A stretch of 64,000 nucleotides of DNA from an uncultured Verrucomicrobiota bacterium (GTDB lineage: Bacteria; Verrucomicrobiota; Kiritimatiellia; CAIVKH01), in contig CALKUH010000045.1 of the NCBI GenBank assembly GCA_937996795.1, forward strand, positions 3,541 to 67,540, in the 5' to 3' direction. Below are positions 1,351 through 50,780 of this stretch, piece by piece (positions within the stretch are counted from its first letter, which is position 1; the number at the start of each line of letters is the position of its first letter). Under the pieces are notes generated by a model. It was not told where the DNA came from. It searched no databases and was given only the letters and a program-made list of their open reading frames with translations. The translations under genes were made by a program, and so were the position numbers.

Positions 1351-1399
1351 TTGCAACGTCTGTAAAAACTCTTCGGAACGGTTTGCAACGTCTGTAAAA
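1351..1399. repeat. Paired 17-bp motif TTGCAACGTCTGTAAAA, locus 1. The copies are at 1351-1367 and 1383-1399, a 32-bp period.
   Basis: Two exact copies are read directly in the divergent intergenic region between the methyltransferase and the phosphodiesterase. Confidence 0.8.
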
Positions 1400-1450
1400 C
1401 ATTTTTCGGGGTTGGACGAACAGGGGTGTCGTCGTTATCTTTTCAGGCCT

Positions 1451-2203
1451 ATGAAGTTGATCGCGCATCGGGGGGCGTCGCGCGAAGCGCCGGAGAACAC
1501 GATTCCGGCGATTCACCTGGCGTGGCAGGAGAAGGCGGATGGCGTCGAGATCGACGTGCGGCTCACGTCGGACGGCAAGGTCGTCCTGATGCACGATGAA
1601 AACGTGCTGCGCACCGCCGGCAAGAACCTGGAGGTTGCGTACCAGCCCTGGGACGCGTTGCGGGTGCTGGATGCGGGCGTGTGGATGAGTCCGCGCTGGA
1701 AGGGCACGCAGATTCCGCTGTTGCGCGATGTGCTCAAGATGCTGCCGGGCGGTCGCACGTTGTGGATCGAGGTGAAGTCCGGCACGGACATCATCCCGGC
1801 GTTGAAGGCGGACATTGAGGTGCGGAAGCCGCCGATGGACGCGATCAAGTTCCTCGGTTTCAGCGCGCATGTGATGGGCGAATTGAAGAAGGTGTTCCCG
1901 AAGCACGGCGTTTATTTGAATGTCGAGCCGCGCGGTTTTCCGAATGCGCCGAATCCGTGGGCGGCGGACCTGCTGGTGGCGCAGGCGCGTCGGTCGCATC
2001 TGGACGGGTTGAGCGTGGGGCTTTCCGATGCCGTGGATGAGGCGTTTATCAAGACTGTGCACGAATCGGGCCTCGATCTGACGGGGTGGGTGGCGGACGA
2101 CGAGCATGTAGCGCTGCGCCTCGCGCGCGCGGGGTTGCGGTCGGTGATGACGAATCGCCCGGCGTATATCCGGCATCGCCTGCGGGACCACGGGGTGTCG
2201 TGA
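1451..2203 (+). CDS. Glycerophosphodiester phosphodiesterase (GDPD family)
   Basis: It has the LIAHRGAS motif and a GDPD fold-type sequence. The ATG at 1451 is preferred over the upstream alternative. Confidence 0.75.
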   Translation: MKLIAHRGASREAPENTIPAIHLAWQEKADGVEIDVRLTSDGKVVLMHDENVLRTAGKNLEVAYQPWDALRVLDAGVWMSPRWKGTQIPLLRDVLKMLPGGRTLWIEVKSGTDIIPALKADIEVRKPPMDAIKFLGFSAHVMGELKKVFPKHGVYLNVEPRGFPNAPNPWAADLLVAQARRSHLDGLSVGLSDAVDEAFIKTVHESGLDLTGWVADDEHVALRLARAGLRSVMTNRPAYIRHRLRDHGVS

Positions 2204-3021
2204 GTCCGCCCGCTTCGCGCGCGCGGGCGGCCGCGTTGCGGGAGCGGCTCGAATCGATCTACACGCGCTATCACCGCGCCGACTTGATTGAACCCGACCC
2301 GCTCCAGTGGGTGCGGCGTTTCCCGGACCTGCGCGACCGCGAGCTCGTGGCGCTGCTGGCCGCGGCGCTGGCGTTCGGGCGCGTGTCCCACATCCTCGCG
2401 AGTTTGGGGAAGCTGTTGCCGCGCATGGGCGGGCGTCCGGCGGAGTGGTTGCAAGGGGCCAGCGACGCGCAGGTGGCGCGCGTGTGCGCGGGGTGCCGGC
2501 ACCGGTGGACGACAGCGGACGAGATGGCGAACCTGTTGCGCGCGGTGCGGGGTGTGCAGCGCGCGGAGGGATCGATGGCCGCCGCGTGGGCGGGATCAAT
2601 CCGACCCGGCGACCGCGATGCGCACGATACGCTGGCGCGTTGGGTGGCGCTGCTCGATGCCCACGGGCTGGCGCCCGACAACTCGATGATTCCGCGCCCT
2701 GAGCGTTCCTCGGCGTGCAAGCGGCTGCATCTGTTTTTGCGGTGGATGATCCGGTGCGACGCGGTGGACCCGGGTGGATGGCCCGATGTGCCCGCGCGGC
2801 TGGTGGTGCCTTTGGATGTGCACATGCACCGGATGGCGCGTGTGATGGGGCTGACGCGGAGGCGCGCGGCGGATTTGCGGACCGCGCGGCAGATCACGGC
2901 CGCCTATGCGCGGGTGTGTCCGGAGGACCCCGTTCGGTATGATTTTGCCCTCACGCGGATGCCGATTCACGAGGGGTTGGGGGTGGCGGAGGTGCGGGGG
3001 ATGCTTCGCCCGGGTGGGTGA
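2200..3021 (+). CDS. Conserved hypothetical protein, TIGR02757/DUF2400-like
   Basis: It is a long ORF with codon bias typical of this genome. A GTG start overlaps the upstream stop. The family assignment is tentative. Confidence 0.4.
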
Positions 3022-3092
3022 AGGTGGGTCTTGCGCTCCGGTCGGAAGGTCGGTACGTTCTCCGGCTCGATCCATCAGAACCAAAGGAACCT

Positions 3093-3320
3093 ATGCCCGG
3101 CGGCAAAGAAGACATCATTGAAATGGACGGGACGGTGACGAAAGTCCTGCCCGCGACCATGTATCGTGTGAAACTGGCCAGTGGTCACGAAATCCTGGCC
3201 CACATCTCCGGCAAGATGCGCAAGCACTTCATCAAGATCACCAATGGTGACCGGGTGAAGGTGGAGATGTCCCCCTACGACCTGACCAAGGGTCGGATTA
3301 CCTTCCGCCACCGCGTTTGA
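3093..3320 (+). CDS. infA: Translation initiation factor IF-1
   Basis: It has the [20 protein letters not shown] and KGRITFR S1-like IF-1 signature. An AAGGAA ribosome-binding site sits upstream of the ATG at 3093. Confidence 0.9.
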
Positions 3321-4173
3321 TTCGCGCGGGCGCGAGCCCCAGTTCGATCAGCGCCGCCCGGAAATCCTCCGGCGGCGTTGCCTGTACGCGCCGCTGCGCG
3401 CCGGTATCCGGGTCGCGCCAGCTCAACCGCCACGCGTGCAGCATCTGCCGCGGGATGTGCCGCAGCGTGTCGTCCTTCACCTTGCGTGTCGCGTAGGTGC
3501 GGTCGCCCGCGAGCGGGAAGCCGGCGGCCTGCAGGTGGACGCGAATCTGGTGGGTGCGTCCCGTATGCGGGCGCGCCTCGATATGCGCGGCCTGCGGTGT
3601 GCGGCGGAGCAGCCGGAATTCCGTGTGCGCGGTTTGCCCTTCGACCGGCCGGTCCATTTCCTTCAGCGTGTGCGGGAAGGGGCCCATCGCGATGGCCTGG
3701 TACACTTTTTCGATCGTGCGTTCGGAGAATTGCGCCTCGAACGCGGCCTGTGCTTCCGGCGTGCGGGCGAAGAGCAGGCAGCCGCTCGTGTCGCGGTCGA
3801 GCCGGTGCACGGGCAGGATTTCCGGGTGTTGCTGTTTGACGCGCGATTCGGCGCTTTCGGGGCCCAGGCTGACGAGGCCGGCGGGTTTGTCCACCACCAG
3901 GCAGCGGGCGTCGCTGTAGAGCAGGCGCAGCTCCGGTTTGCGCACGACCTCGGCGCGGGGGAGGATGGCCGCTTCGACGACATCACCCATGCGCAACTCG
4001 TGGTGCGCGATCCAGATGCGGCGTTTGTTCACAAAGACCCGGCGCTCATCGAGCAGGCGCTTGGCCTGCTTGCGGGAAATCCCGAGCTTCATGGTGAGGA
4101 ATCGATCCAGTTGCAGTCCGCTTTCCGGCTGCCGGACGGTGATGAGGGTGGGAACAGGCATGCCGTGGACCAT
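3298..4173 (-). CDS. rluD: RluA-family 23S rRNA pseudouridine synthase with an N-terminal S4 domain (RluD-like)
   Basis: An S4-like N-terminus is followed by the HRLDRDTSG catalytic motif. The start was trimmed to the internal ATG. Confidence 0.7.
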
Positions 4174-4257
4174 AGCGGGCCGGGGCGGAATGACCAATGG
4201 GGAAATTCCGAATGACGCGCGGGGCGGTGCGGAGTAAACTTCTTTCGGGGCGAAGCG

Positions 4258-5346
4258 ATGAAGTGGCAATCGTCAGACGTGGCGCCGACGCGGCACTGGG
4301 AGTCGTTGCCCGGGGGGCGGGTGCAGTGCAATGTGTGTCCGAACCATTGCCGGCTGGCGGAGGGGCAGCGCGGGGCGTGTTTCGTGCGGATGGCGCAGGG
4401 CGGGGCGGTGGTGTTGACGACGTACGGGCGGTCGAGCGGGTTCTGCATCGACCCGATTGAGAAGAAGCCGCTCAACCATTTCCTGCCCGGCACGCCGATC
4501 CTGTCGTTCGGCACGGCGGGTTGCAACTTGGCGTGCCGGTTCTGCCAGAACTGGGACATTAGCAAGTCGCGCGAGATGGATACGCTGGCCGATGCGGCGA
4601 CGCCGGAGGCGCTGGCCGACGCGGCGGTGCGGCTGGGGTGTCCCAGCGTCGCGTTCACGTACAACGATCCGGTCGTGTTCATGGAATACGCCATCGACAT
4701 CGCGAACGCGTGCCACGCGCGCGGCGTGAAGGCGGTCGCGGTCACCGCGGGATACATGTGCGATGCGCCGCGCCGCGAGTTTTATGCGCACATGGACGCG
4801 GCGAACGTGGACCTGAAGGGTTTCACCGAATCCTTTTATCAGAAAATCTGCGGCGCCCGCCTGGACAACGTGCTGGAGACGCTGGTGTATCTCAAGCGGG
4901 AGACGGCGGTGTGGTTCGAGCTGACGACGCTGTTGATTCCGGGCGAAAACGATTCGGAGGCGGAGATCGACGCGATGACGAAGTGGGTGGCGCGCGAACT
5001 GGGTCCCGACGTGCCGCATCACTTCACGGCGTTTCACCCGGACTACAAGATGCTGGATCATCCGCCGACGCCGCCGGAGACGCTGTCGCGCGCGCGCGCC
5101 ATTGCGATGGGGAACGGACTGCGTTTTGTGTACACCGGCAACGTGCGCGACGAGGTGGGGGGCAGCACCTGGTGCCCCGGCTGCGGCGCCCGCGTGATCG
5201 GGCGCGATGGCTACACGATTACGGAGTGGCGGCTGGGCGACGCTGGCCGCTGCGCCGGCTGCGGCACACGGATCCCCGGGGTTTTTGCGGGAAGGCCCGG
5301 CGACTGGGGCGCGCGCCGGCAGGTCGTGCGCCTGTCGGGTCGGTGA
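4258..5346 (+). CDS. amrS: AmmeMemoRadiSam-system radical SAM enzyme
   Basis: It has the CNVCPNHC and CNLACRFCQN cysteine clusters and overall similarity to the AmrS/PFL-activase-like family. Confidence 0.7.
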   Translation: MKWQSSDVAPTRHWESLPGGRVQCNVCPNHCRLAEGQRGACFVRMAQGGAVVLTTYGRSSGFCIDPIEKKPLNHFLPGTPILSFGTAGCNLACRFCQNWDISKSREMDTLADAATPEALADAAVRLGCPSVAFTYNDPVVFMEYAIDIANACHARGVKAVAVTAGYMCDAPRREFYAHMDAANVDLKGFTESFYQKICGARLDNVLETLVYLKRETAVWFELTTLLIPGENDSEAEIDAMTKWVARELGPDVPHHFTAFHPDYKMLDHPPTPPETLSRARAIAMGNGLRFVYTGNVRDEVGGSTWCPGCGARVIGRDGYTITEWRLGDAGRCAGCGTRIPGVFAGRPGDWGARRQVVRLSGR

Positions 5347-5352
5347 GGCCGG

Positions 5353-6429
5353 CTATTCTTTTTTCGCGGGTTCCGCGGAGCGGCCCTCGTTCCAGGAAAC
5401 CGCCACGCCGGCGGCGAGGATGACGAACACCAGGCCGAGCAGGTAGAGGTTAAACGACTCGCCGAGGGCGACTTTCAGCGGCTTCGCGAACAGCATTTTC
5501 AGGCCGACGATCATCAGCACCAGCGAGAGGGACAGCTTGAGGTAGCGGAACCGGTCGAGCATGCCGGCGAGCGCGAAGTAGAGGGAACGCAGGCCGAGAA
5601 TGGCGAAGACATTGCTGGTGAAGACGAGGAACGGGTCGGCGGTGATCGCGAAGATGGCGGGGATCGAATCCACGGCGAAGATCAGGTCCGCCGTCTCCAC
5701 CATGATCAGCGCGAGGGCGAGCGGTGTCAGCAGCCAGGTCCCGGCGCGCGCCTTTTCGAGGACGGGGTCGGGCGCGGTTTCGACCGAACCGGGCATGACG
5801 CCTTCGTGCGATTCGACGCTGCCCGCGCGGACGAGAAAATGCTGGCCGTGGAAGTGCGCCGTTACGGGCATGAACCGGCGGACCAGCCGCACGAGGATGT
5901 TGCGGTCCGGGTGGATGGTCTCCGCCTTGGCGAAGAGCATCTTGATGCCGGTGATCACGAGGAAAGCGCCGAAGAGGTAGAGGATCCAGTGGAACTGGGC
6001 GATCAGCGCCGCGCCGACGCCGATCATGATGCCGCGCAGCACCAGGGCGCCGAGCACGCCCCAGAACAGCACGCGGTGCTGGTAGATCGCCGGCACGCCG
6101 AAGAAGGTGAAGATCATCGCGATGACGAAGACGTTGTCGACGCTGAGCGATTTTTCGACGACATAACCGGTGACATATTTCAGCGCGGCGGTCCGGCCGT
6201 TGTTGACGAGGCCGTCGCAGGCGTCCGGCGCGAGCCCGAGGCCCAGCCAGTGGTTTTCGTAGCCGAAGTAGATGAAGATCGTGAACAGCAGGCCGAGCGT
6301 GATCCAGACGGCGGACCATTTCAGCGCTTCACGAATGGTGACGACATGCGCTTTGCGGTGGAACACACCCAGGTCCAGCGCCAGCATCAGCAGGACAAAC
6401 GAAACAAAGCCCACCCAGATCCAGATCAC
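5353..6429 (-). CDS. TerC-family integral membrane protein
   Basis: It has multiple TM segments and TerC/Alx-like conserved blocks. Confidence 0.7.
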   Translation of the reverse strand: MIWIWVGFVSFVLLMLALDLGVFHRKAHVVTIREALKWSAVWITLGLLFTIFIYFGYENHWLGLGLAPDACDGLVNNGRTAALKYVTGYVVEKSLSVDNVFVIAMIFTFFGVPAIYQHRVLFWGVLGALVLRGIMIGVGAALIAQFHWILYLFGAFLVITGIKMLFAKAETIHPDRNILVRLVRRFMPVTAHFHGQHFLVRAGSVESHEGVMPGSVETAPDPVLEKARAGTWLLTPLALALIMVETADLIFAVDSIPAIFAITADPFLVFTSNVFAILGLRSLYFALAGMLDRFRYLKLSLSLVLMIVGLKMLFAKPLKVALGESFNLYLLGLVFVILAAGVAVSWNEGRSAEPAKKE

Positions 6430-6511
6430 GGGGTACCTCCTTCAGGCGGCGCGCAATAAAGGCGGGCGGGGCGGCAAGATCAAGCGGAAACGGATGGCGC
6501 GACGCCGCGAA

Positions 6512-6874
6512 TCAGAAGTTCTGGCAGTAGGAGCAGAGCAACTGGCCCGACGTGGCGGTGCAGCGCAGGTGCTCGCGAGTGGTGTCGGGCAGGTCGAGAA
6601 ACTGAAGCCAGACGCGGTAGCGGTCGTGCTCCTTGTCCGGCTGGCAGCGGACGACGGCGCCGGTGCAGCGAACGCGGGTCCGGGCGCCATCCGCGCCGGG
6701 GGCGTCGATGCACACCTCAAGGATCGTGAACGGTTCCACCGCGTGCGTGAGGTGAAACTGCAACCCGAGCGGACACAGGTGGAAATCCTCCGGCTGGGTG
6801 ACGGGGGGCGCGGGTTCCGCCAGCACCGTCACCGGTCGTTTGGCCGATCCTGTTCCCATTGAGACTCGTGTCAT
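6512..6874 (-). CDS. Small cysteine-rich hypothetical protein, possibly PilZ-like
   Basis: It is a 121-codon ORF with good GC3 bias in the 570-bp gap between two same-strand genes. It ends in CSYCQNF. Confidence 0.35.
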   Translation of the reverse strand: MTRVSMGTGSAKRPVTVLAEPAPPVTQPEDFHLCPLGLQFHLTHAVEPFTILEVCIDAPGADGARTRVRCTGAVVRCQPDKEHDRYRVWLQFLDLPDTTREHLRCTATSGQLLCSYCQNF

Positions 6875-7000
6875 ATGCGCCCTGTTGCCGTCCTTGGGTG
6901 ACGATACGACAGGAATGGTGCGTGTCAAATGCGGGCGGGGGCACGAGGAGGAGAGGGAGACGTGAGGGGACGAGGACACGAGGGCACGAGCGAGGGGGGG

Positions 7001-9398
<2,398 letters not shown>

Positions 9399-9468
9399 TC
9401 ATTCGAACGCAACTCTGACCCGGTCCCGATCCCTCCACCGCGGGGGATCGGGACTTGGAGGAATCACC

Positions 9469-10728
9469 GTGAACAAGCTGACGATTGCCGACCTCGACCT
9501 CAAAGGGAAACGCGTCCTCATCCGGGTGGATTTCAATGTCCCGGTGGAAAACGGAAAGGTCATGGACGACACGCGCATCCGCGCGGCGCTGCCCACGATC
9601 AAGTACGTGCTCGATCACGGGGCGTCGGTGATCCTCATGAGCCACCTGGGTCGTCCCAAGGGCGGCAAGAACGAGCCGGAGTTCAGCTTGAAACCCGCGG
9701 CGGACCGCCTGTCCGATCTGATGCGCCGCCCGGTGCAATTCGCGCCGGATTGCGTGGGACCCCAGATCAAGGCGATGGCCGAATCGCTGCGCCGCGAACA
9801 ACACATCCTTCTGCTGGAGAACCTGCGTTTCCACAAGGAGGAGGAGGGCAAGGTCAAATTGCCCGAGACCGCGACCGACGAGGAGAAGAAGGCCGCGAAG
9901 TCCGAGATGAAGAAGAAGCAGGAGGAGTTCGCGCGCCAGTTGTCCGAACTCGGCGACCTCTACGTGAACGACGCCTTCGGCACGGCGCACCGCGCGCATG
10001 CCTCGACGGCCGTCATTTGCAAGTTTTTCAAGACCAATGCCGCGGGCTTCCTGATGGAGCGCGAGGTGAAGTACATGGGCCAGGCGCTGGCGAACCCCGA
10101 GCGCCCGTTCGTGGCGATCCTCGGCGGCGCGAAGGTGAGCGACAAGGTCAACGTCATCACCAACCTGCTCAACAAGGTCAACGCGCTGCTGATTGGCGGC
10201 GCGATGGCCTACACGTTCTACCGCGCCAAAGGCCTGCCGACCGGCAAGTCGCTGGTGGAGGAGGACAAGGTGGCGCTCGCGGCGGACCTGATCAAACAGG
10301 CGCAGGCCAAGGGCGTGAAACTGCTCCTGCCGGTGGATCATGTGATCGCGGATAAATTCGCGGCGGATGCGGCCCACAAGACGGTGGGCGAGGCGGGCAT
10401 CGCGGAGGGCTGGATGGCGCTCGATATCGGGCCCAAAACCGCGGAACTCTATGCGAAGGAAATCAGCGGCGCGAAGACGGTGATCTGGAACGGCCCGATG
10501 GGCTGCTTTGAGATGGAGCCGTATGCCGCTGGAACCATGTCCGTCGCGAAGGCGATTGCGGCGACGAAGTGCCTGAGCATCATTGGCGGCGGCGACAGCG
10601 TGGCCGCGGTGAACAAGAGCGGGCTCGCCGACAAGATGAGTCACATCAGCACCGGCGGCGGCGCGAGCCTCGAGTTCCTCGAGGGCAAGGCGCTGCCCGG
10701 CGTGGTCGCGCTGACGGACAAGGCCTGA
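9469..10728 (+). CDS. pgk: Phosphoglycerate kinase
   Basis: The full-length PGK signature is present. It has a GTG start with a GGAGGA ribosome-binding site. Confidence 0.95.
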
Positions 10729-22414: not shown

Positions 22415-22903
22415 ATGAGCAAAGTACCTGTCGTCCGTGAATTCATGGTCACGTCGCTGGTCACGCTGCGACCGGAACTGCCGATCCGGCAGGCCATCGA
22501 CATCCTGCTCAAACACCGCATCTCCGGCGCTCCGGTGGTGGACGCCGACGGGCGTTTGATCGGGATGTTGTCGGAAAAGGACTGCCTGCGCGTCTTCGCC
22601 AACGCCGCGTTCTACAACGCCGACCCCGGCGATGTGGACGACTACATGGCGCGCGACGTGCGGACCATCGAGCCCGACGCCGACCTTTTCAAGGCCGCGG
22701 ATATCTTCCTGAAGAACAGTTTCCGCCGCCTGCCCGTCGTCGAGGACGGCAAACTCGTCGGCCAGATCAGCCGCCGCGACGTGCTCAACGCGAGCCGCGC
22801 GATGACCGACGCGTCGCCGGTCCCGAAACCGTGGACCGACGCGAAGTACCTCACCGACGAGGTCAAGGCCGCCCTCGCCGACAAACCCGCCACCGGCGGA
22901 TAA
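22415..22903 (+). CDS. CBS domain pair protein
   Basis: Two CBS motifs are present (GAPVVD and RRLPVVEDGKLVGQISRRDVL). Confidence 0.75.
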   Translation: MSKVPVVREFMVTSLVTLRPELPIRQAIDILLKHRISGAPVVDADGRLIGMLSEKDCLRVFANAAFYNADPGDVDDYMARDVRTIEPDADLFKAADIFLKNSFRRLPVVEDGKLVGQISRRDVLNASRAMTDASPVPKPWTDAKYLTDEVKAALADKPATGG

Positions 22904-22953: not shown

Positions 22954-23016
22954 TTGCAACGTCTGTAAAAACTGTCGCGCCCCGCTTGCAACGTCTGTAA
23001 TTTACAGACTCTGCAA
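22954..23016. repeat. Paired 17-bp motif, locus 2. The copies are at 22954-22970 and 22986-23002. A degenerate inverted copy at 23003-23016 forms a near-palindrome with copy 2.
   Basis: The copies are read directly. The 32-bp period matches locus 1. The motif ends 8 bp before the epimerase ATG. Confidence 0.8.
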
Positions 23017-26005: not shown

Positions 26006-26275
26006 ATGAGCGAGTACGACTGGAATGACGATAAAAACGCCCTTCTGGAGCGGACTCGTGGTGTTTGCTTCGAAGACGTATTGGTGTGTATTGAAAACGG
26101 TGACGTCCTTGACGTTATGTTTCATCCCAATCGCGAGCGGTATCCGGATCAGTATGTTATCGTCCTAAAAATGGCGGATTACGTTTGGCTCGTGCCATAT
26201 ATAAAAACCAGAGGAGTGCGTTTTCTGAAGACGATCATTCCAAGTCGCAAGGCCGCGAGGGAGTACCTGTCATGA
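26006..26275 (+). CDS. brnT: BrnT-family (DUF497) ribonuclease toxin
   Basis: YDWNDDKNALLERTRGVCFEDV matches the BrnT N-terminal signature. The gene is low in G+C. Confidence 0.75.
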   Translation: MSEYDWNDDKNALLERTRGVCFEDVLVCIENGDVLDVMFHPNRERYPDQYVIVLKMADYVWLVPYIKTRGVRFLKTIIPSRKAAREYLS

Positions 26276-26553
26276 ACAAGACGCCAGCGTTGGACAAGGA
26301 AGAGCTGCAGATCCTGGAAGACTTCGAACGGGGCGAGTTCAAGCGCGTGCCGAACTTCCCCGCGGAGAAACGGGCTCTTGAGGATGCGGCTCGGAATACC
26401 CTGCAGAAGGATCGTCGCATCAACATTCGCATCTCGTCGCGCGATCTGGCGCGCATTCAGATGCGAGCGGCCCGGGAGGGCATGCCCTACCAGACGTACA
26501 TTTCCAGCACGTTGCACAAGCTGGTGTCCGGCAGATTGCAGGAACGAGCCTGA
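26272..26553 (+). CDS. brnA: BrnA antitoxin (RHH/CopG-like)
   Basis: Its C-terminal RINIRISSRDLARIQMRAAREGMPYQTYISSTLHKLVSG resembles BrnA. Its ATGA overlaps the brnT stop. Confidence 0.7.
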   Translation: MNKTPALDKEELQILEDFERGEFKRVPNFPAEKRALEDAARNTLQKDRRINIRISSRDLARIQMRAAREGMPYQTYISSTLHKLVSGRLQERA

Positions 26554-26630: not shown

Positions 26631-27593
26631 ATGAGAATTCTGTCCGGCATTCAACCTTCGGGGCGGCTTCACCTGGGCAACTACTTTGGCATGATGCGGC
26701 CGGCCATTGAGTTGCAGGACCGGGGGGAGGCGTTCTATTTCATCGCGAACTACCACGCCCTGACGACGGTCACGGATGCGGAGGCGCTGCGGCGCGGCAC
26801 GCTGGATGTCGCCCTTGATTTCCTGGCCTGCGGGCTCGATCCGGCGCGGACGGTGTTTTACCGGCAGAGCGATGTGCCGGAGGTGACGGAATTGACGTGG
26901 TTGCTGTCGGTGATCACGCCGATGGGGCTGCTGGAGCGCTGTCACTCCTACAAGGACAAGATCGCGAAGGGCATTGCGGCGTCGCATGGCCTGTTCGCGT
27001 ATCCGGTGTTGATGGCGGCGGACATCCTCGCGGTGCAGGCGGACCTGGTGCCCGTGGGGCGCGACCAGAAACAGCATGTGGAGGTCACGCGCGACGTGGC
27101 GATCAAGTTCAACAACCAGTACGGCGAGGTGTTCCGGATCCCGAAGGAGGAGATCCGCGAGGATGTCGCCGTGGTGCCGGGGCTCGACGGCCAGAAGATG
27201 TCGAAGTCCTACAACAACACGATCGAGATTTTCGGGGACCCGAAGGAGACGCGCGCGCGCATCATGCGCATCGTGACCGACAGCAAGGGCGTGGCCGACG
27301 CGAAGGACCCGGACACCTGCAACGTGTTCGCGTTGTACCGGTTGTTCGCGACGCCGGAGGAGCGCGAGGCGATGGCCGCGCGGTACCGCGCGGGCGGCAT
27401 GGGGTACGGCGACGCGAAGAAGGCGCTGCACGAGAAGTTCGAGGCGCATTTCGGCCCGCTGCGCGCGAAGCGCGCGGAGCTGGCGGCGAAGCCGGAGTAC
27501 GTGGAGGACATCCTGCGGCGTGGCGCGGCGCGCGCACGCGCCGAGGCGGTGGCGACGTTGAAAAAGGCCCGCGCGGCCATGGGGCTCGACTAG
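26631..27593 (+). CDS. trpS: Tryptophan--tRNA ligase
   Basis: It has the class I HLGN (HIGH-type) motif and the KMSKS motif. Confidence 0.9.
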   Translation: MRILSGIQPSGRLHLGNYFGMMRPAIELQDRGEAFYFIANYHALTTVTDAEALRRGTLDVALDFLACGLDPARTVFYRQSDVPEVTELTWLLSVITPMGLLERCHSYKDKIAKGIAASHGLFAYPVLMAADILAVQADLVPVGRDQKQHVEVTRDVAIKFNNQYGEVFRIPKEEIREDVAVVPGLDGQKMSKSYNNTIEIFGDPKETRARIMRIVTDSKGVADAKDPDTCNVFALYRLFATPEEREAMAARYRAGGMGYGDAKKALHEKFEAHFGPLRAKRAELAAKPEYVEDILRRGAARARAEAVATLKKARAAMGLD

Positions 27594-39309: not shown

Positions 39310-39396
39310 GCACCCGTGGTGGAATTGGCAGACACGTAAGATTCAGGTTCTTATGCCTTTACCGGCGTGGGGGTTCAAGTCCCTCCGGGTGCACCA
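39310..39396 (+). tRNA. tRNA-Leu (anticodon CAG), class II with a long variable arm and an encoded CCA
   Basis: Folded by hand. There is a 7-bp acceptor stem GCACCCG/CGGGTGC and an anticodon arm TAAGA-TTCAGGT-TCTTA. The T loop is TTCAAGT. It is near-identical in layout to E. coli tRNA-Leu(CAG). Confidence 0.9.
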
Positions 39397-41842: not shown

Positions 41843-41871
41843 TTGACTTCGTGAAGGGACCCCGAGATTAT
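41843..41871 (+). promoter_or_regulatory. Putative sigma70-like promoter for the operon beginning at 41948. TTGACT, a 17-bp spacer, then GATTAT.
   Basis: The hexamers are read directly in the 150-bp divergent intergenic region. Confidence 0.4.
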
Positions 41872-41947
41872 CCCACGCAAGCCATCGTGATCAAGGGGAC
41901 GCCGCAAAGGCAGCCGCGATGGGGGGCCTTTCATCGAAGGACGTGAC

Positions 41948-43438: not shown

Positions 43439-43459
43439 TCGCACGAATCGGAATCGAGC

Positions 43460-43984
43460 ATGGCCGAAGCGGCAAAAACGGACTTTTCGTCCTTCATGTG
43501 CGTGATTCTGATGCTCACCGGCTGCCTGGTGACCATCATGATCAGCAACATCATCATCATTGCCGCCAACCCCGAAAACGTGCAGATCACGTCGATCATT
43601 CCCCAAGGTATGGACCCGGCCAATGACAAGCCGGTCGAGGACAGCCAGGGCAACATCATCAAGAGCCCGTGGTATCTGGAGGTCTGGCGCGACCGCATGA
43701 TCATCCACCCCGGCGGCGAGGAAATCGGCGTGCGCGAGTTGGAGCAGAAGGACAACGCGTTCGAGCAATTTTTGACACGTGTCCAGGCTCGCAACGACCG
43801 GCAGTACATCGTTCTCCTCGTGCGCGAGCATGGCGCGACGATCGCCCGCAAGTTGAAGAAGGTGATCCGCGACCGGAAAATCGACATCGGTATGGACCTG
43901 CTGTATTCGACGGAGCCCATCAAACTTCGGAACGTCAGCACCGGTGCGGTCGAGACCGCAACCGCCACCGCGGCGGGGACCTAG
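43460..43984 (+). CDS. ExbD/TolR-like protein, first paralog (single N-terminal TM)
   Basis: It has an N-terminal TM FSSFMCVILMLTGCLV and an ExbD-like periplasmic fold pattern. Confidence 0.6.
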   Translation: MAEAAKTDFSSFMCVILMLTGCLVTIMISNIIIIAANPENVQITSIIPQGMDPANDKPVEDSQGNIIKSPWYLEVWRDRMIIHPGGEEIGVRELEQKDNAFEQFLTRVQARNDRQYIVLLVREHGATIARKLKKVIRDRKIDIGMDLLYSTEPIKLRNVSTGAVETATATAAGT

Positions 43985-43993
43985 GAAACCGTC

Positions 43994-44635
43994 ATGGCAA
44001 AAAAGGCCGATGCTACGGGCGCGATCAACCTCGACTCCTTCCTGGATGTGTTGACCTGCCTGCAGGGCATCCTGATGCTGGTCATCATCGCGACAGGCAT
44101 TGATGCCGCGCAGACCAAAGTCCTCGTGCCGACGCCCATCGAGAAACAAAGCACCAAAATTCCGATCTACCTGGAATGCCGTGGAAACCTGATCTACCCG
44201 ATGGAAGTGACCGATCTGGCCCGCCAGGCGCGCATGTCGATGATGCAAATGAGCCAGCAATCGCAGGGCGACCAGACCAAATTGATGCAGGCGCTCGCGA
44301 CGACACGCGTCACCAACGAGTATTATGAGGTCGACCTCACGTATTATCTGCTGGGTCAATTGGTGATCAAGACCCGCGCGGATTCAAACGCCACCGGGCA
44401 CGCCCTCGATGAACGCTCAACGTTCTCCACGGACAACTTCCTGGTCCGCCTGCTCAAGACGGTGGACAAGGACAAGCAGCGCTTGGTGCTGGTGGTCCGG
44501 GACGACAGCTTCAACGTGTTTAAGGTGGCCCAGCGGCTCGCCTTCCTGGCGCAACTGGAACTGGGCGTGGAGATCTACGACGCCCGCGAGCTGCTGCGCT
44601 TCACCCAGCAGGGCGCCCTGATCACCGGCAGTTAA
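43994..44635 (+). CDS. ExbD/TolR-like protein, second paralog
   Basis: INLDSFLDVLTCLQGILMLVI matches the ExbD/TolR N-terminal signature. Confidence 0.7.
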   Translation: MAKKADATGAINLDSFLDVLTCLQGILMLVIIATGIDAAQTKVLVPTPIEKQSTKIPIYLECRGNLIYPMEVTDLARQARMSMMQMSQQSQGDQTKLMQALATTRVTNEYYEVDLTYYLLGQLVIKTRADSNATGHALDERSTFSTDNFLVRLLKTVDKDKQRLVLVVRDDSFNVFKVAQRLAFLAQLELGVEIYDARELLRFTQQGALITGS

Positions 44636-44708
44636 TCCTGCTTTTTGCGCTGACAGCCGCGCGCCGGTTGTTCACAGTATCCGTTTGTTCATCCGGAGGC
44701 GTCGAATC

Positions 44709-45143
44709 ATGTCCGTCATGGAAGCCAAAGAGATCATGCAGATTCTGCCGCATCGGTATCCGATGCTGCTTGTGGACCGTGTCATTGAATGCGACTTCAA
44801 ACAGCGCATCGTCGCGGTCAAGAACCTGACCATGGGCGAGCCCTGCTTCCAGGGGCATTTCCCGAACGACCCGATCTTCCCGGGCGTGCTGCAACTGGAG
44901 GCGATGGCCCAGACCGGCGGCATCCTGATGAACAAGGCCTTCGGACATGAAGGCCGCATCGCGTATTTCCTCGCCGTGGACAAGGCCCGGTTCCGCCGCA
45001 TCGTCCGGCCCGGCGACCAGATCCGCATCGAAGTAGTCTTCCAGCGCGCGCGCCTGGGCATGTCGAAAATGCAGGGCCGCGTCTTTGTCGGTGACGAGCT
45101 GGCGAGCGAGGCCGAGATCATGTTCGGCTATGGGGACGCCTGA
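44709..45143 (+). CDS. fabZ: 3-hydroxyacyl-ACP dehydratase
   Basis: It has the LPHRYPMLLVDRV motif, the GHFP catalytic His and a hotdog fold. Confidence 0.9.
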   Translation: MSVMEAKEIMQILPHRYPMLLVDRVIECDFKQRIVAVKNLTMGEPCFQGHFPNDPIFPGVLQLEAMAQTGGILMNKAFGHEGRIAYFLAVDKARFRRIVRPGDQIRIEVVFQRARLGMSKMQGRVFVGDELASEAEIMFGYGDA

Positions 45144-45146
45144 TTC

Positions 45147-45920
45147 ATGGCCGACATTCATCCCTCCGCCGTGGTTGCGCCAGGCGCTCAGCTGGCCACG
45201 GATGTCGTGGTCGGTCCCTTCTGCTGTGTCGGCCCCGAGGTGTCGCTGGGCGCGGGAACGCGCCTGATCTCGCATGTGGTCGTGAGCGGCTTTACGCGCG
45301 TCGGGGCGGGATGCGTGTTCTTTCCCTTTGCCAGCATTGGCGTGCAGACGCAGGACCTGAAGTTCAAGGGCGGGCGGCCCGGCACGGTGATCGGCGACCA
45401 TACGACCGTGCGCGAGAACGTAACGATTCACGCGGCGACGGACGACGGCAACCTCACGGTGATCGGATCGCACGGCCACATCATGGCCTACGCGCACGTC
45501 GCGCATGACTGCCGCATCGGCGACCACGTCATCCTGTCCAACGGCGCGCAACTCGCAGGCCATGTCCAGGTCGAGGACCACGCCATCGTCAGCGCGATGA
45601 CCGGCGTCCACCAGTTCGGACGGGTGGGGCGCTACAGTTTTATCGGCGCGTACTGCAAGGTCACCCAGGACGTGCCGCCGTATATGCTGGTGGATGGCGT
45701 GCCCGCCCGCGTGCCGGCGCCCAATGCAGTCGGCCTGAAGCGCGCGGGATTCAGCGAGGAAACGCAGCGCGCGCTCAAGCAGGCCCACCGCCTCTTGTTC
45801 CGCAGCGAGCTCGCCACCGGCGAGGCGCTCCGGCAAATTGAGGAAACCGTGGAGCAAACGCCGGAGGTGCGCCATCTGGTCGCCTTCGTGCGCGCGTCCG
45901 AACGGGGCATCGTGAAGTGA
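45147..45920 (+). CDS. lpxA: UDP-N-acetylglucosamine O-acyltransferase
   Basis: It has a hexapeptide-repeat LpxA sequence with a C-terminal helical domain. Confidence 0.9.
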   Translation: MADIHPSAVVAPGAQLATDVVVGPFCCVGPEVSLGAGTRLISHVVVSGFTRVGAGCVFFPFASIGVQTQDLKFKGGRPGTVIGDHTTVRENVTIHAATDDGNLTVIGSHGHIMAYAHVAHDCRIGDHVILSNGAQLAGHVQVEDHAIVSAMTGVHQFGRVGRYSFIGAYCKVTQDVPPYMLVDGVPARVPAPNAVGLKRAGFSEETQRALKQAHRLLFRSELATGEALRQIEETVEQTPEVRHLVAFVRASERGIVK

Positions 45921-47839
45921 AGAAGCTGGCCCATCTTGTTTTGGCGCTGGCGCTGGCGGTCGCGCCGGTCGCGCCGCTGGCTGCGCGGGCGGAAGAGGGG
46001 CCCTACGTCAATTTCAGCTTCGACCAGGTGGAGATTCCCGTCCTTGTGAAGCTGGTCGGCGAAATGACCGGCCGCCGGTTCGTCGTCGGCGAGGAAATCA
46101 CCGGCCGCGTCACGGTCGTAACCCCGCAGCGGATCCCGGTCAAGGATGCCTATCCGCTGCTCGTGTCCATCCTCGAATCGCGCGGACTCGGCATCCTGGA
46201 GCAGGGCGGATTGCACCGCGTCATCCTGCTGCCGGAACGGGCCGTTCCCGGCGCCACCGTGATGATCCCGGAGGATGACAGCACGAATGCCGTGGGGTTG
46301 GTGACCAAGCTGATCCGCGTGCAGCACGTCAGTGTCTCCGAGTTGCGCCGCCTGCTGGAACCGCTTGTGCGCGGCGGCAAGTCCGGCGCGCTCGCGGCGT
46401 TTCCGCCCACGAATCACCTGATCATCACGGACACCGCCGAGAATGTGCGCCAGATCGAGCGCATCATCGGCGAGCTCGACAAGCCCGGCGCGGCGCGCGT
46501 CGTCGATGTGATCCCGCTCAAACACGCCGCCCCGGATGACCTGGCCCGCCAGCTTGTCGCCGCCATGAAGGGCGGCGCGAGCGCCGGCGAGAAAGTATCG
46601 CGTCATCTCCAGCAGGTGGGCGAGGGCATGGGCGCGCTGCCCGCGGACGTCGTGGTCGTGCCCGCGCCCCGCGCGAACAGCATCATCATCGTGGGCACCC
46701 CGGTGCAGTTGAACGAACTGCGCGAAATCGTCGCGCGCATGGATGTCGAGGCGCCTTCGGGGTACGGGCGGCTGCACGCGATCTTCCTCAAATACCTGTC
46801 CGCCGAGGAGGCGGCCAAGAGCCTCACCGCGCTGCTGGCCAAGACCGACAAGGAGCGCGCGCCCATCGCCATCGAACACAACCTTGCGAACAATGCGCTG
46901 GTGGTCGATGCGAGCCCGCAGGATTTCGAATTCCTCAAAAAACTCGTCGAGCAGCTCGACCAGGTGCCGCAGCAGGTCATGGTGGAGGTCCTGCTGGCCG
47001 AGGTCGCCGTCGGGCGCTCCCTGGATCTCGGCGTACGCCTGGCGACGGTGGACCAACCGAAGGACGGTTCCACGACGGTGATTGGCGGCAGTCAGCCCTC
47101 GGAGACGGATGCCGTGATGAATTTCCTCGAGACGGGCGCCTTCCCCCAGGGCCTCGCAATCGGTGTCGCGCGGGGCACCTACACCGATGCGGCGGGCAAT
47201 ATCGTTCCAAGCATCCCGATCCTGATCCAGGCCCTCGCGCAGAATCGCGACGTCAAGATTCTCTCCAATGTTCCCTTGTGGGCGCAGAACAACGTCGAGG
47301 CCAGCGTCAGCGTCGTGGAGAACATCCCGATCCTGCGTTCGACGATCGAAGGCGGGGCGGGCACCTCGCGCGATGTCATCCAGAACATCGACCGCATCGA
47401 TGTCGGCATCAAACTGAAACTCACCCCGCACGTGAATCCCGACGGCGACATCACGCTCCAACTCAACCCGAGCATTGAGGCGATTGTCGATGAAGGCCCT
47501 GCGGATACGCAATTCGCCCCGTCCATCGCCAAGCGCGAGGTCTCCACCACCGTCACCCTGCCGAACAAGGCCACCGTTGTGATCAGCGGCCTCATTCGCG
47601 AAGACCGCGTGAACATCGTGAGCAAGGTCCCGCTGCTGGGCGACCTGCCGCTGATCGGCTTCCTGTTTCGCAGCAAGAGCGAGCGCGTCCAGCGCACGAA
47701 CCTGTTGATCTTCGTGACGCCGCACATCGTGACCGACATGGCGGCGGCGCGCGCGATGCAGCAAAAATTGCAGCAACAAACGAAAATCGATGTCGAACCG
47801 GCGACGCTCAACATGGATGCGCCGGTCCCGTTGAAGTAG
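45917..47839 (+). CDS. Outer-membrane secretin of the GspD/PilQ family
   Basis: It has a signal peptide, repeated Secretin_N domains and the C-terminal VPLLGDLPLIGFLFRS...LLIFVTPHIV motif. Its GTG start overlaps the lpxA stop. Confidence 0.85.
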   Translation: MKKLAHLVLALALAVAPVAPLAARAEEGPYVNFSFDQVEIPVLVKLVGEMTGRRFVVGEEITGRVTVVTPQRIPVKDAYPLLVSILESRGLGILEQGGLHRVILLPERAVPGATVMIPEDDSTNAVGLVTKLIRVQHVSVSELRRLLEPLVRGGKSGALAAFPPTNHLIITDTAENVRQIERIIGELDKPGAARVVDVIPLKHAAPDDLARQLVAAMKGGASAGEKVSRHLQQVGEGMGALPADVVVVPAPRANSIIIVGTPVQLNELREIVARMDVEAPSGYGRLHAIFLKYLSAEEAAKSLTALLAKTDKERAPIAIEHNLANNALVVDASPQDFEFLKKLVEQLDQVPQQVMVEVLLAEVAVGRSLDLGVRLATVDQPKDGSTTVIGGSQPSETDAVMNFLETGAFPQGLAIGVARGTYTDAAGNIVPSIPILIQALAQNRDVKILSNVPLWAQNNVEASVSVVENIPILRSTIEGGAGTSRDVIQNIDRIDVGIKLKLTPHVNPDGDITLQLNPSIEAIVDEGPADTQFAPSIAKREVSTTVTLPNKATVVISGLIREDRVNIVSKVPLLGDLPLIGFLFRSKSERVQRTNLLIFVTPHIVTDMAAARAMQQKLQQQTKIDVEPATLNMDAPVPLK

Positions 47840-47848
47840 GGAACCCCC

Positions 47849-49540
47849 GTGCGCATCGGCGAAATCCTGGCCGCGAAAGGCTATGCGCAGCCGGCCCAGA
47901 TCGAGGCGGCGTTGCGCGAACAGCAGGAGCAGCAGCCCCGCGCGCTGCTCGGCGAAATTCTCTGCCGCCGCAAGGTCATCACCGAGGCCCAGCTCGCCGA
48001 AGCGCTGGGCGAACAGTTCGGCCTGCCGTTTGTCCCCGCCATTGAACCCGTCTGGCTCCAGCCCGCCCTTGTCGAGCGCCTCTCGGTGGACTGGGCCCGC
48101 ACGCACCGCCTGCTCCCGATTTTGCGCGAAGGCCAGGTCTTTGCACTGACGGCGGACCCTGCCGCCGTCGCACGCCTCGATGAACTCTCGCTCCTGCTCG
48201 GTCGCGATGTCGTGCCCCTCATCACAACGTCCGCCGAGCTGCGCCGCGCGATTGATCTCTGCTATGCGCAGCGCGCCACGCCTGGCTGGGCCGCGGAATC
48301 CGCGCCCGACCACGCCGAGACGCCCGCGGAGAGCCATGCCGAGGATCTGCTGCGCGCAACCGAGGATGCGCCCGTCGCGCAATACGTCAACGGGCTGTTG
48401 CTCGATGCGGTGCGCCGCCGCGCCTCCGACATCCATCTCGAGCCGTTCGAGTCCCACCTGCAGGTCCGGTTTCGCGTGGATGGCTTCCTCTACGCGCAGC
48501 CTCCGCCGCCCAAATCGATTGAGTCCGCGTTGGTCTCCCGCATGAAGGTGATGGCGCGGCTCGACATCGCCGAGCGGCGCCTGCCACAGGACGGCATGGC
48601 CAAGGTCCGCGTCGGCCCGCGCGAGTACGACATCCGCGTGTCCACCGTGCCTGTCGCCGAGGGTGAGCGCGTCGTGCTGCGCCTGCTGAACCAGGAATCC
48701 CTGCTGCGTCCGCTCGGAACGCTGGGCATGCCCCCGGCCGTTGAATCCGATTTCCGCCGCGTGCTGACCGAACCCAACGGCGTCATCCTCGTGACCGGTC
48801 CGACCGGAAGCGGCAAGACCACCACGCTCTATGCCGCGTTGCAGGGCCTCGACACGCAGCGCCTGAACGTGATGACGATCGAAGACCCCATCGAGTACCA
48901 GTTGCCCGGCATCGCGCAGATCCAGGTGAAGCCGAAGATCGGCCTCACCTTCGCCCAGGGCCTGCGCCACATCCTGCGCCAGGACCCGGATGTGATTCTC
49001 GTGGGCGAAATCCGCGACGCGGAGACGGCGGAGATCGCCATCCGCGCCTCGCTCACCGGGCACCTCGTCTTCAGCACGCTGCACACCAACGATGCCCTCT
49101 CCGCGGTGATCCGCCTCGTGGACATGGGCGTGCCGTCCTACCTGCTTTCCTCCGCCTTGCGCGGCTGCCTCGCGCAACGCCTCGTCCGCCAGCTCTGCCC
49201 GACCTGTCGCAAGGCGTCGTTCCCCAACGAAGACGAGCTGCGTTCCCTCGGTCCGCATGCCGAGCGCCTGCGCGGCAAGGTCATCTGGCGTCCGGTCGGC
49301 TGCCCCGAGTGCCTCGGCGGCTACCGCGACCGCTGTGGCCTTTATGAATGGATCCGGTTCGGCGCCGACTGGGAATCCGCCCTGCGCGCCGGCGCGGACG
49401 GCGACGCCCTGCGCAAGCGCCGTCGCGAGATGGCCGTGCCCTCCTTGCTGGACGACGGGTTGGAGAAGGTCCGCAAGGGCGTCACCTCGCTGGAGGAAGT
49501 CCTCCGCACCGTCAGCGCGGACGCCGCATCCGTCCCATGA
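47849..49540 (+). CDS. Type II secretion/type IV pilus assembly ATPase (GspE/PilB family) with an N-terminal GSPII_E_N domain
   Basis: It has Walker A GPTGSGKTT, Asp and His boxes, and the C-terminal tetracysteine CPTC...CPEC. Confidence 0.85.
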   Translation: MRIGEILAAKGYAQPAQIEAALREQQEQQPRALLGEILCRRKVITEAQLAEALGEQFGLPFVPAIEPVWLQPALVERLSVDWARTHRLLPILREGQVFALTADPAAVARLDELSLLLGRDVVPLITTSAELRRAIDLCYAQRATPGWAAESAPDHAETPAESHAEDLLRATEDAPVAQYVNGLLLDAVRRRASDIHLEPFESHLQVRFRVDGFLYAQPPPPKSIESALVSRMKVMARLDIAERRLPQDGMAKVRVGPREYDIRVSTVPVAEGERVVLRLLNQESLLRPLGTLGMPPAVESDFRRVLTEPNGVILVTGPTGSGKTTTLYAALQGLDTQRLNVMTIEDPIEYQLPGIAQIQVKPKIGLTFAQGLRHILRQDPDVILVGEIRDAETAEIAIRASLTGHLVFSTLHTNDALSAVIRLVDMGVPSYLLSSALRGCLAQRLVRQLCPTCRKASFPNEDELRSLGPHAERLRGKVIWRPVGCPECLGGYRDRCGLYEWIRFGADWESALRAGADGDALRKRRREMAVPSLLDDGLEKVRKGVTSLEEVLRTVSADAASVP

Positions 49541-50730
49541 AAACGTTTGCGTTTCGCGGTTATGCGCGGGGGGGCGAGCGCACGCGCGGCCTAATCGAGG
49601 CGATGGATCCCAAGGAGGCGCGCGAGAAACTCGCCGCGCGCGGCGTGCTCGCGGAATCCGTGAATCCCGCCGGCGCGCACGGCGGTCGCCGCCGCTTCGG
49701 TTCCGCTGATCGATCCTCCCTCTATCGTGAACTTGGTTCGCTCCTCGCGTCGGGCGTGCCCGCCGTGGCCGCCCTCGACATCCTGCTCGACGCCCAGCCG
49801 CGCGAGCACATCGCGGCCCTGCTGGCCGCAGTACGCGATGCGCTGCGCGAAGGCGCCGGTTTCGCCCAGGCCCTGCCGGCGGCCTGCCCGGACATCACCG
49901 AATTTGAGATCGCCCTTCTCCTCACCGGCCAGCGCACCGGCCAACTCGGCGCCGTGCTCGCCCAGATGGCCGACTACCTCGACGAACAGCGCCGCCTGCG
50001 CGAGAGCATCCAATCCGCGCTGCTCTATCCGATGCTGGTCATCGGCCTTTCGCTCATCGTCGGCGTCGTCATGATGCTCGTCGTCCTGCCGCGCCTGTCC
50101 AACCTGTTTGAAGAGACCGGCGCGCAACTGCCCTGGCTGACCCGTGCGCTCCTGTGGATCGGCGGCCCCGGCCGCCTTCCGATCCTTGGCGTGCTGGCGG
50201 TTGTCGCCGGCGGTGTCTGGTGGAACGTGCGCAGCCTTCGCCGTACGCCGGAATCGCGTGTGCAGTGGGAACAGCGCTGGATGCGATGGCCGCTGATCGG
50301 CGTCGCCTTCCGCCACGTTGTCAGCATCCGTTTCACGCGCACCCTGGTCGTCCTGCTGCGCGGCGGCGTGCCGCTTGTCGAAGGCCTGCCGCTCGCGGCG
50401 CGGGCCAGCGGCAGCCGCTGGCTCGACCAGGAGATGAAACGCGGCGCGGAAACCGTGCGGCAGGGACGGCCCGTCGCCGCCGCGCTCGCGGATGCCCCGT
50501 GGGTCGGCGCGACCCTTCCGCCGTGGTACCGTGCGGGTGAAGCCAGCGGCGATCTCAACGGCATGCTCGAACAAGCCGCGCGCCGCTTCCAGGAACAATG
50601 GGAAACCCTGCTTCAACGCGTCGTCCGCCTCATGGAACCCGCGCTGATCCTGATGGTCGGCGTCTTCGTCCTGCTCGTCGCCCTCGCCATCCTGATGCCG
50701 CTGCTCTCGCTCAACCAGATGGCGTTCTGA
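49537..50730 (+). CDS. Inner-membrane platform protein (GspF/PilC family)
   Basis: It has two T2SSF repeats and three TM segments. Its ATGA overlaps the gspE stop. Confidence 0.8.
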   Translation: MKTFAFRGYARGGERTRGLIEAMDPKEAREKLAARGVLAESVNPAGAHGGRRRFGSADRSSLYRELGSLLASGVPAVAALDILLDAQPREHIAALLAAVRDALREGAGFAQALPAACPDITEFEIALLLTGQRTGQLGAVLAQMADYLDEQRRLRESIQSALLYPMLVIGLSLIVGVVMMLVVLPRLSNLFEETGAQLPWLTRALLWIGGPGRLPILGVLAVVAGGVWWNVRSLRRTPESRVQWEQRWMRWPLIGVAFRHVVSIRFTRTLVVLLRGGVPLVEGLPLAARASGSRWLDQEMKRGAETVRQGRPVAAALADAPWVGATLPPWYRAGEASGDLNGMLEQAARRFQEQWETLLQRVVRLMEPALILMVGVFVLLVALAILMPLLSLNQMAF

Positions 50731-50731
50731 G

Positions 50732-50780
50732 TTGCAACGTCTGTAAAAACTTTTTGGGGCGTTTACAACGTCTGTAAATT
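50732..50780. repeat. Paired 17-bp motif, locus 3. The copies are at 50732-50748 (TTGCAACGTCTGTAAAA) and 50764-50780 (TTACAACGTCTGTAAAT).
   Basis: The copies are read directly and share the 32-bp period of loci 1 and 2. They lie between convergent genes and overlap the bioD stop codon. Confidence 0.8.

Follow-up and report, generated by a model that had tools for sequence, protein, structure and literature searches.

We describe here a previously undescribed family of short DNA elements that is distributed across Kiritimatiellia and built from paired near-palindromic boxes three helical turns apart. Three copies lie in the 64-kb stretch of a Kiritimatiellia metagenome contig that we analysed (the window, whose positions are used below unless another locus, designated by an L number, is named). 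The anatomy of the elements, their phasing, their distribution over the lineage, the genome-specific versions of their boxes (dialects), their persistence at orthologous sites and their lack of single-strand structure were all observed directly. To the view that they are phased recognition boxes for a putative oligomeric, dimer-of-dimers DNA-binding protein we give about even credence.

The 17-mer TTGCAACGTCTGTAAAA matches the window exactly at 1351, 1383, 22954 and 50732, always on the + strand, and two-mismatch copies start at 22986 (TTGCAACGTCTGTAATT) and 50763 (TTACAACGTCTGTAAAT). With up to three mismatches there are 7 matches, against 0.01 expected from shuffles, so the repeated and paired 17-mer that a reading of the window from its letters alone (the sequence-only reading) had noticed at three intergenic loci is real. 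A relaxed scan for two boxes 31 or 32 bp apart returned three loci only in the 64 kb, compared with 0.13 in Markov shuffles. All three are intergenic according to gene calls made with a codon log-odds (codon-usage) gene caller trained on the Kiritimatiellia lineage. Their parts are as follows.

1351..1367, + strand: locus 1, box 1, exact copy of TTGCAACGTCTGTAAAA, 21 bp from the methyltransferase gene start
1368..1382, + strand: locus 1, spacer of 15 bp, ACTCTTCGGAACGGT, 32-bp class
1383..1399, + strand: locus 1, box 2, exact copy, its end 51 bp upstream of the GDPD ATG at 1451
22954..22970, + strand: locus 2, box 1, exact copy, 50 bp past the stop of the CBS-domain gene at 22903
22971..22985, + strand: locus 2, spacer of 15 bp, ACTGTCGCGCCCCGC, related to ACTGTTCGCAACGG at the orthologous site of L088, L091 and L093
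22986..23002, + strand: locus 2, box 2, TTGCAACGTCTGTAATT
23000..23016, - strand: locus 2, third box, inverted and degenerate, TTGCAGAGTCTGTAAAT, three mismatches, 16 bp downstream of box 2
50732..50748, + strand: locus 3, box 1, exact copy, beginning 1 nt past the gspF stop codon
50749..50762, + strand: locus 3, spacer of 14 bp, ACTTTTTGGGGCGT, 31-bp class
50763..50779, + strand: locus 3, box 2, TTACAACGTCTGTAAAT, its final base being the first base of the bioD stop codon (- strand)

The start-to-start period is 32 bp at loci 1 and 2, as had been proposed for all three, and 31 bp at locus 3, which ends at 50779 and not at 50780. Locus 1 had been placed upstream of a phosphodiesterase and a methyltransferase gene; these genes are divergent, and the locus lies between both starts, that of the methyltransferase (586-1329, - strand, Pfam assignment) at 1329 and that of GDPD at 1451. 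Locus 2 occupies part of the spacer between the CBS-domain gene (stop 22903) and the epimerase gene (ATG 23025). Its inverted third box, also noticed before, forms a hairpin-capable palindrome with box 2 and, instead of abutting the epimerase start codon, ends 8 nt before it. Locus 3 takes up all 48 bp between the convergent genes gspF (stop 50730) and bioD (stop 50779-50781), and the overlap with the bioD stop described earlier amounts to one base.

The pairing holds far beyond the window. An exact-17-mer scan of species-representative genomes gave about 60 single matches spread over many phyla, roughly the number expected by chance, together with 12 matches in one Kiritimatiellia metagenome-assembled genome (MAG; DAOLDD01) and 2 in a "Verrucomicrobiota" MAG (CAYMCD01). 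All 14 copies in these two MAGs, which represent other species than the window and align with it at the DNA level over a single gene block at 82% identity, have a same-strand partner at 31 or 32 bp. For the generic box TTNCA-N5-TGNAA, 56 of the 66 copies in about 345 kb of de-duplicated Kiritimatiellia DNA are partnered at 31 or 32 bp, against 0 of 90 in control loci of other phyla totalling 455 kb; the pattern is almost diagnostic. Neighbouring direct boxes are spaced by 31 or 32 bp in 29 of 29 cases, and a distance of 16 bp was found for seven pairs of adjacent boxes, which are those with third boxes. Chance alone would give about one unpaired box in the 345 kb, and two clear cases of isolated boxes were seen, both in L093. 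Direct boxes are thus almost always two per element, with an occasional third inverted box or four-box array. For annotation, two TTNCA-N5-TGNAA boxes 31-32 bp apart are specific enough to be marked automatically. A metagenome scan for exact core pairs yielded three loci; L077 is a true relative, whereas the other two, L076 and L078, come from low-GC DNA and consist of unrelated tandem repeats.

The sequence-only reading held that the spacers differ completely between loci. Over 18 elements, we find two recognisable families: a 31-bp class with ACTTTTTTGGGGAC-like spacers, to which locus 3 belongs, and a 32-bp class with ACTGTTCGCAACGGT-like spacers, represented by loci 1 and 2. In the 32-bp class a third inverted box is often present 16 bp past box 2. 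About 11 bp before box 2, the spacer ACTGTTCGCAACGGT also holds a degenerate version of the left half-box, TTCGCAACGG, seen at 1375-1393 in the window and in the 32-bp-class spacers of L001, L064, L088, L091 and L093; an additional half-site at a distance of one helical turn may be present there.

The 17-mer contains the dyad TTGCA-ACGTC-TGTAA. Orthologous regions from other Kiritimatiellia, found through homologues of BioD and of the epimerase, carry box versions of their own, always paired at 31 or 32 bp. The box reads CAACGTCTGTAA in the window and CAAGGTCTGTAA, CATGCTCTGTAA or the perfect palindrome TTCCAA-N3-TTGGAA elsewhere. The latter, as (AC)TTCCAA-N3-TTGGAA(GT), is found in L090, L092 and L094, and L092 holds a four-box array spaced by 32, 31 and 32 bp; L088 has TTCCAAGGTCTGTAA, and L093 has TTCCATGCTCTGTAA and TTCCATGTTATGGAA at two loci. 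Since the box is near-palindromic here and perfectly palindromic in relatives, the element is a pair of dyad boxes and not the site of a direct-repeat binder. From the earlier suggestion of a transcription-factor operator for such a binder we therefore keep the protein-binding site, as the best reading, and drop the direct-repeat part. Within the window dialect, position 3 of the box, in the left arm, is free (G 26, A 8, C 5, T 2) and the remainder nearly invariant. The symmetry-related free positions 3:13 and 6:10 co-vary only partly; at 3:13, G-T is the commonest combination and C-T is also frequent, so that pairing is not maintained. This fits a two-fold symmetric reader with one relaxed half-site rather than a base-paired stem.

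Elements persist at orthologous sites. The gspF|bioD element of a relative with 94% BioD identity has the two boxes unchanged and a spacer that differs at several positions. L039 and L066, which are orthologous (Mrp operon, 68-88% protein identity), both have the three-box form with nearly identical boxes and spacers that are about 60% identical by our count. Orthologues thus keep the boxes while the spacer drifts, and this, with the 29 of 29 spacings, supports the earlier claim of selection on boxes and spacing, provided that homogenisation is admitted as the other possible cause. The spacer between the CBS-domain and epimerase genes carries an element in the window, L088, L091, L092 and L093, each time in the dialect of its own genome, and L088, L091 and L093 have the spacer ACTGTTCGCAACGG in common; two epimerase orthologues are without an element. 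In L091 (9560-10000; DAOLDD01 species) the epimerase-upstream element is disrupted: a G+C-rich hairpin interrupts its box 1, and between the element and the epimerase gene stand about 330 bp rich in hairpins.

The first 17 elements that we collected are all intergenic. A further box pair lies in frame inside a gene for an FGE-sulfatase (PF03781) lipoprotein, with 32 nt spacing, in the variable linker just past the lipobox cysteine, at these positions.

L081 19836-19883 (= L082 14433-14480): in-frame box pair, FGE-sulfatase gene
L094 1897-1945: in-frame box pair, FGE-sulfatase gene

In L082 the boxes are TTCCAACGTCTGTAAAA and TTCCAACGTCTGCAAAA and the encoded peptide is C-FPTSVKEDSGDFQRLQK-LGKPPK (DAOLDD01 species); the second box has TGCAA in place of TGTAA, and an in-frame stop codon is thereby avoided. 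Three further FGE-sulfatase orthologues have box-encoded peptides with 11-codon spacing (FPTVGS..FQGLEV, VPWSVKT..FHTMEY and VPSSVKT..FHALEK), and the second-box peptide changes with the dialect: FQRLQK, FQGLEV, FHTMEY, FHALEK. The DNA of L094 matched the prediction made from the peptides exactly (TTCCAACGGTTGGAAGT, 15 nt, TTCCAAGGGTTGGAAGT). Other FGE-sulfatase orthologues are without box-encoded peptides.

Counting only elements that were not themselves the reason for fetching their locus, we found about 8-9 in about 239 kb, or 1 per 27-30 kb, from which we roughly estimate a copy number on the order of 100 per genome. This abundance, and the indifference of the elements to gene context, lead us to favour a global or architectural binder. 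Element strand is unrelated to the strand of neighbouring genes, with about half of the elements on the same strand as the downstream gene and half convergent to it. The neighbours include a class-III (ArgD-like) aminotransferase with a PIN-domain gene, a SerC-like aminotransferase, IlvC, PPDK, the 3' end of an AraC-type regulator gene, UvrD, an Mrp antiporter subunit, CysS, LptF/G, a C-N hydrolase, FolD, a GT2 glycosyltransferase, PGI and an RmlD-like gene. One element lies upstream of an SDH/FRD flavoprotein gene and after a gene that we read as the cytochrome b subunit, which has no Pfam match. We also considered a replication-oriented (Ter-like or KOPS-like) site. Of 17 loci, 13 have a positive GC skew on the strand of the element, a result that is not significant because two of the loci are orthologous and the 8-20-kb windows are noisy, and no coding-strand trend was seen; we rejected this candidate.

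In the sequence-only reading the motif was linked to envelope or glycan genes, and a conventional local or pathway-specific transcription factor acting on such genes through the element as its operator would explain why the copy upstream of the epimerase-acyltransferase-GT4 operon has been kept in at least five lineages and why others lie just upstream of GT2, RmlD-like and LptF/G genes. We think this improbable. The neighbours are mostly unrelated housekeeping genes, and copies sit between convergent genes, between two genes of an SDH locus and after bioD; some 100 copies per genome are too many for a pathway regulator, and even the epimerase site is empty in the two orthologues noted above. 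The envelope or glycan link is thus not borne out as a general property, and the element upstream of the epimerase operon in five lineages may act as a local operator.

Promoter functions account for the elements still less well. The box does contain a TTGCAA that resembles a -35 hexamer, TGCAAC and CGTC reminiscent of extracytoplasmic function (ECF) promoters, and a TTGCA like the -12 element of sigma-54 promoters, all read from the sequence, and enhancers of the NtrC type have two dyads about 32 bp apart. A sigma-70, ECF or sigma-54 promoter, or a bacterial enhancer for sigma-54 activators, is nevertheless very improbable: the three window loci show no sigma-70-type hexamer pair (16-18 nt apart) and no intrinsic terminator, elements point with and against the downstream gene about equally often, the G of TTGCAA is the freely variable position 3, other dialects are without such hexamers, and one element fills a 48-bp convergent spacer. 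As read from the sequences, no GG stands at the -24 distance of a sigma-54 promoter and the spacing of the AAC and CGT elements does not fit an ECF promoter, and both candidates were rejected.

An action at the level of RNA, through a hairpin or a protein-binding RNA motif, or a role in DNA uptake, is the least credible explanation of all. In its favour, the perfect-palindrome dialects could form 6-bp hairpins, the species-specific versions recall the dialects of DNA uptake sequences (DUS) in Neisseriaceae, and the window encodes type II secretion or pilus-like genes. However, folding z-scores of loci 1 and 3 (-0.06 to -0.6) are no better than those of shuffled sequences, that of locus 2 (z = -2.9) being due to its extra inverted box; the lack of maintained pairing at 3:13 and the random orientation to transcription also stand against it. 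Rfam has no match to the element: the only match in the window is a tRNA at 39310-39393, and four related loci gave none. Ribosomal or other RNA genes suspected in the gene-poor flanks near L029 and L056 likewise had nothing in Rfam. As for uptake, known uptake sequences occur about once per kb, far more densely than the 1 per 27-30 kb found here; the 64-kb window has 3 elements, unlike the copy numbers of DUS or uptake signal sequences, and almost all copies are intergenic. The uptake or recombination site put forward from the sequence alone finds no support. A five-codon mini open reading frame, TTG CAA CGT CTG TAA, was also rejected, since a 31/32-bp period does not keep the frame and position 3 varies.

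The boxes are direct, and the window copies have neither flanking inverted repeats nor duplicated flanks, as miniature inverted-repeat transposable elements would. With two to four units, boxes of 17 bp and spacers of 14-15 bp, the elements fall short of a CRISPR array, in which many repeats of about 21 bp or more alternate with spacers of about 26 bp or more. The element has no match in viral contigs, plasmids or phages. A literature search with the core sequence returned only unrelated eukaryotic and viral primers, and one on Kiritimatiellia intergenic motifs found nothing relevant.

The main alternative to a protein site is that of non-coding repeats dispersed through the genome like REP/BIME, NIME or the Rickettsia palindromic elements, and spread or homogenised by recombination, gene conversion or a mobilising enzyme. 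Host function would then be secondary and the genome dialects would reflect concerted evolution of the copies. We consider this unlikely, with more to be said for it than for any other alternative, and several observations that weigh against recognition boxes are the same ones that speak for it. Non-orthologous copies are near-identical and have even their spacer families in common, which is expected of repeat copies and less so of independently evolved binding sites. A profile search of the window found no weaker copies, so that copies are all-or-none. The elements occupy convergent, tandem and divergent spacers in a ratio of about 3.5 : 7 : 6 over 17 elements, about that of a random draw of spacers, with no theme among the neighbouring genes, and the 3-4 of 17 that lie between convergent genes have no promoter there to control. 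Presence varies at orthologous sites: an element stands upstream of lptF/G in L049 and none at the orthologous window gene, and the bioD-bioA spacer has one in L085 and none in L081 or L086. A point against recognition boxes only is that no regulator gene (Lrp/AsnC, NrdR or any other obvious one) adjoins an element or lies in the window and that no candidate binder was found. Further points for a dispersed repeat are the one in-frame coding copy, as with the Rickettsia palindromic elements, and the other short repeats that often lie alongside.

Against a dispersed repeat stand the absence of terminal inverted repeats, target-site duplications and a stable hairpin, the strict period with almost always two direct boxes, the lack of any plasmid, phage or viral match, and the absence of a transposase or RAYT-like gene beside any copy in the annotated loci. 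The dialect, moreover, has been altered in place at orthologous positions with the spacer retained. Simple re-insertion is excluded by this, and gene conversion would have to work on tracts as short as about 50 bp. The sequence-only reading had expected a regulatory role to fall if the copies were scattered without regard to genes or strand, or if the pairing lapsed elsewhere. By that standard the outcome is mixed: the 31/32-bp pairing is fully maintained elsewhere, and the copies do occur in all spacer classes, on both strands and once in coding sequence. Further, REP/BIME elements are dispersed repeats and protein-binding sites alike, and the two readings are not exclusive.

Several further features were seen. 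Directly upstream of the lptF/G orthologues a promoter-like TTGTAT, 16-17 nt, TAGCKT is conserved (window 8090-8135, - strand; L049 2733-2772), and the box pair of L049 lies directly upstream of it; the window has none there. In the bioD-bioA spacer, L081 has an unrelated insert of 370 bp and L086 a PDDEXK_3 gene, which suggests an insertion hot spot; the gene is small (PF13366; L086 10690-11140) and lies between inverted heptad repeats (GGAACTCAGGAAATCAGGAAATGA ... TCCTGATTTCCTGAGTTCC). Two assemblies of one species differ, between L082 7466-7980 and L081 12850-13520, by a ParE/antitoxin pair beside the diacylglycerol kinase gene. Tandem heptad or hexad repeats (CCTGAMA, CCGGTCA, GTTCAC, GGCAGAA, GATTGGG) fill many Kiritimatiellia spacers, for example at L006 380-500, L039 7780-7910, L066 2960-3100, L049 2470-2660 and L089 7740-7900; frequently they make up long inverted repeats on either side of a box pair, and they are reminiscent of the STRR repeats of cyanobacteria. 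With regard to regulators, a scan of 20 window proteins found no transcription factor except a CopG-like antitoxin. This small CopG-type gene (26272-26553; PF12441, borderline score) lies between a GT4 gene and the gene at 26691-27593. The two small genes that flank the L090 pair, considered as possible regulators, encode a glycine-zipper membrane protein and a secreted protein instead.

Protein binding, the oligomeric state of the binder and the consequence of binding are our inference. In the mechanism that we propose, each element, made of near-palindromic 15-19-bp boxes (as a rule two, now and then three or four) whose centres lie 31-32 bp apart on the same helix face, would be read on double-stranded DNA by a sequence-specific protein, one symmetric dimer per box. 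Neighbouring dimers would assemble into tetramers or larger complexes and bend or wrap the spacer, which is rich in A/T tracts and constrained mainly in length. The putative binder would have a global or architectural role, as a nucleoid-associated protein, transcription roadblock or insulator, rather than regulate one pathway. More tentatively, and with rather less confidence than in the boxes themselves, we suggest a chromosome-wide two-box code of about 100 phased dyad pairs per genome, read by a putative lineage-specific oligomeric protein whose specificity would have drifted with its sites following, in-frame ones included, and which would serve an architectural or insulating role. If this were true, the elements would be an example from nature of a protein co-evolving with a large number of its DNA sites, with a function in chromosome architecture or insulation and not in classical gene regulation.

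Kiritimatiellia are widespread degraders of sulfated glycans whose gene regulation and chromosome organisation are almost undescribed. The sharply defined cis-signature (15-19-bp dyads, 31/32-bp period, dialects) could serve as bait for the binding protein, and the dialects with their sites changing in place offer a comparative system for the joint change of a binding specificity and about 100 targets. Should the elements be repeats instead, the same system would inform on gene conversion that homogenises very short dispersed repeats.

Two regulator families come close to the geometry described here. An NrdR tetramer binds a pair of 16-bp boxes, both of them needed, whose 15-16-bp linker must keep its length but not its sequence (PMC13584703). 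The elements have the same layout, with two partially palindromic boxes of 16-17 bp, a linker of 14-16 bp and a period of 31-32 bp. The palindrome of NrdR boxes, however, is even, 16 bp long and A/T-rich at its centre, with C4, A6, A8, T9, T11 and G13 conserved, whereas the element box is a 15-bp odd palindrome with its symmetry centre on a base and a G/C-containing centre. In the form TTGCAACGTCTGTAAA it has C4, A6, T9 and T11 but G8 and T13, that is, 4 of the 6 NrdR positions, and so departs from the consensus. NrdR boxes lie upstream of nrd genes, whereas none of about 27 elements is beside one, and the elements number about 100 per genome.

Among Lrp-type regulators, BarR binds arrays of 3-5 semi-palindromic 15-bp boxes with 15-17-bp spacers, the DNA being wrapped on an octamer (PMC10201364). 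The elements agree in geometry, being 15-bp dyads in a 6-3-6 layout, 16-17 bp apart and in arrays of 2-4, and the four-box array of L092 would suit an Lrp-type octamer. The left half-site TTGCAA also fits TTGYAW, the half-site of Ss-LrpB. On the other hand, Lrp boxes have A/T-rich centres and are usually degenerate, while the sequences of the elements are nearly invariant within a genome; and local Lrp-type regulators adjoin their own gene, whereas no AsnC/Lrp domain was found in the genes called near elements or in the 20 window proteins. We do not regard membership in the NrdR or the Lrp/AsnC system as established.

Other two-dyad sites are known. ComK K-boxes and the regulatory (RBS) and activation (ABS) binding sites of LysR-type proteins also place two dyads on one helix face, about three turns apart, where they are bound by tetramers. 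Those sites lie in promoters, are degenerate and serve defined regulons, and none of this holds for the elements. With the REP/BIME, NIME/dRS3, Correia and Rickettsia palindromic elements, in turn, they have in common that they form short genome-specific families in all kinds of spacer, convergent and intra-operon ones included, with occasional in-frame copies, presence or absence at orthologous sites and mosaics with other repeats. They differ from these in that a stable hairpin, terminal inverted repeats and an accompanying RAYT or transposase are all absent (no RAYT, IS200/IS605-like, gene occurs in the approximately 345 kb of Kiritimatiellia DNA examined), and in their strict three-turn direct boxes and their change in place. 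Phased two-box operators and dispersed intergenic repeats are both known, and the Kiritimatiellia element combines properties of the two, adding genome dialects and an orthologous in-gene copy.

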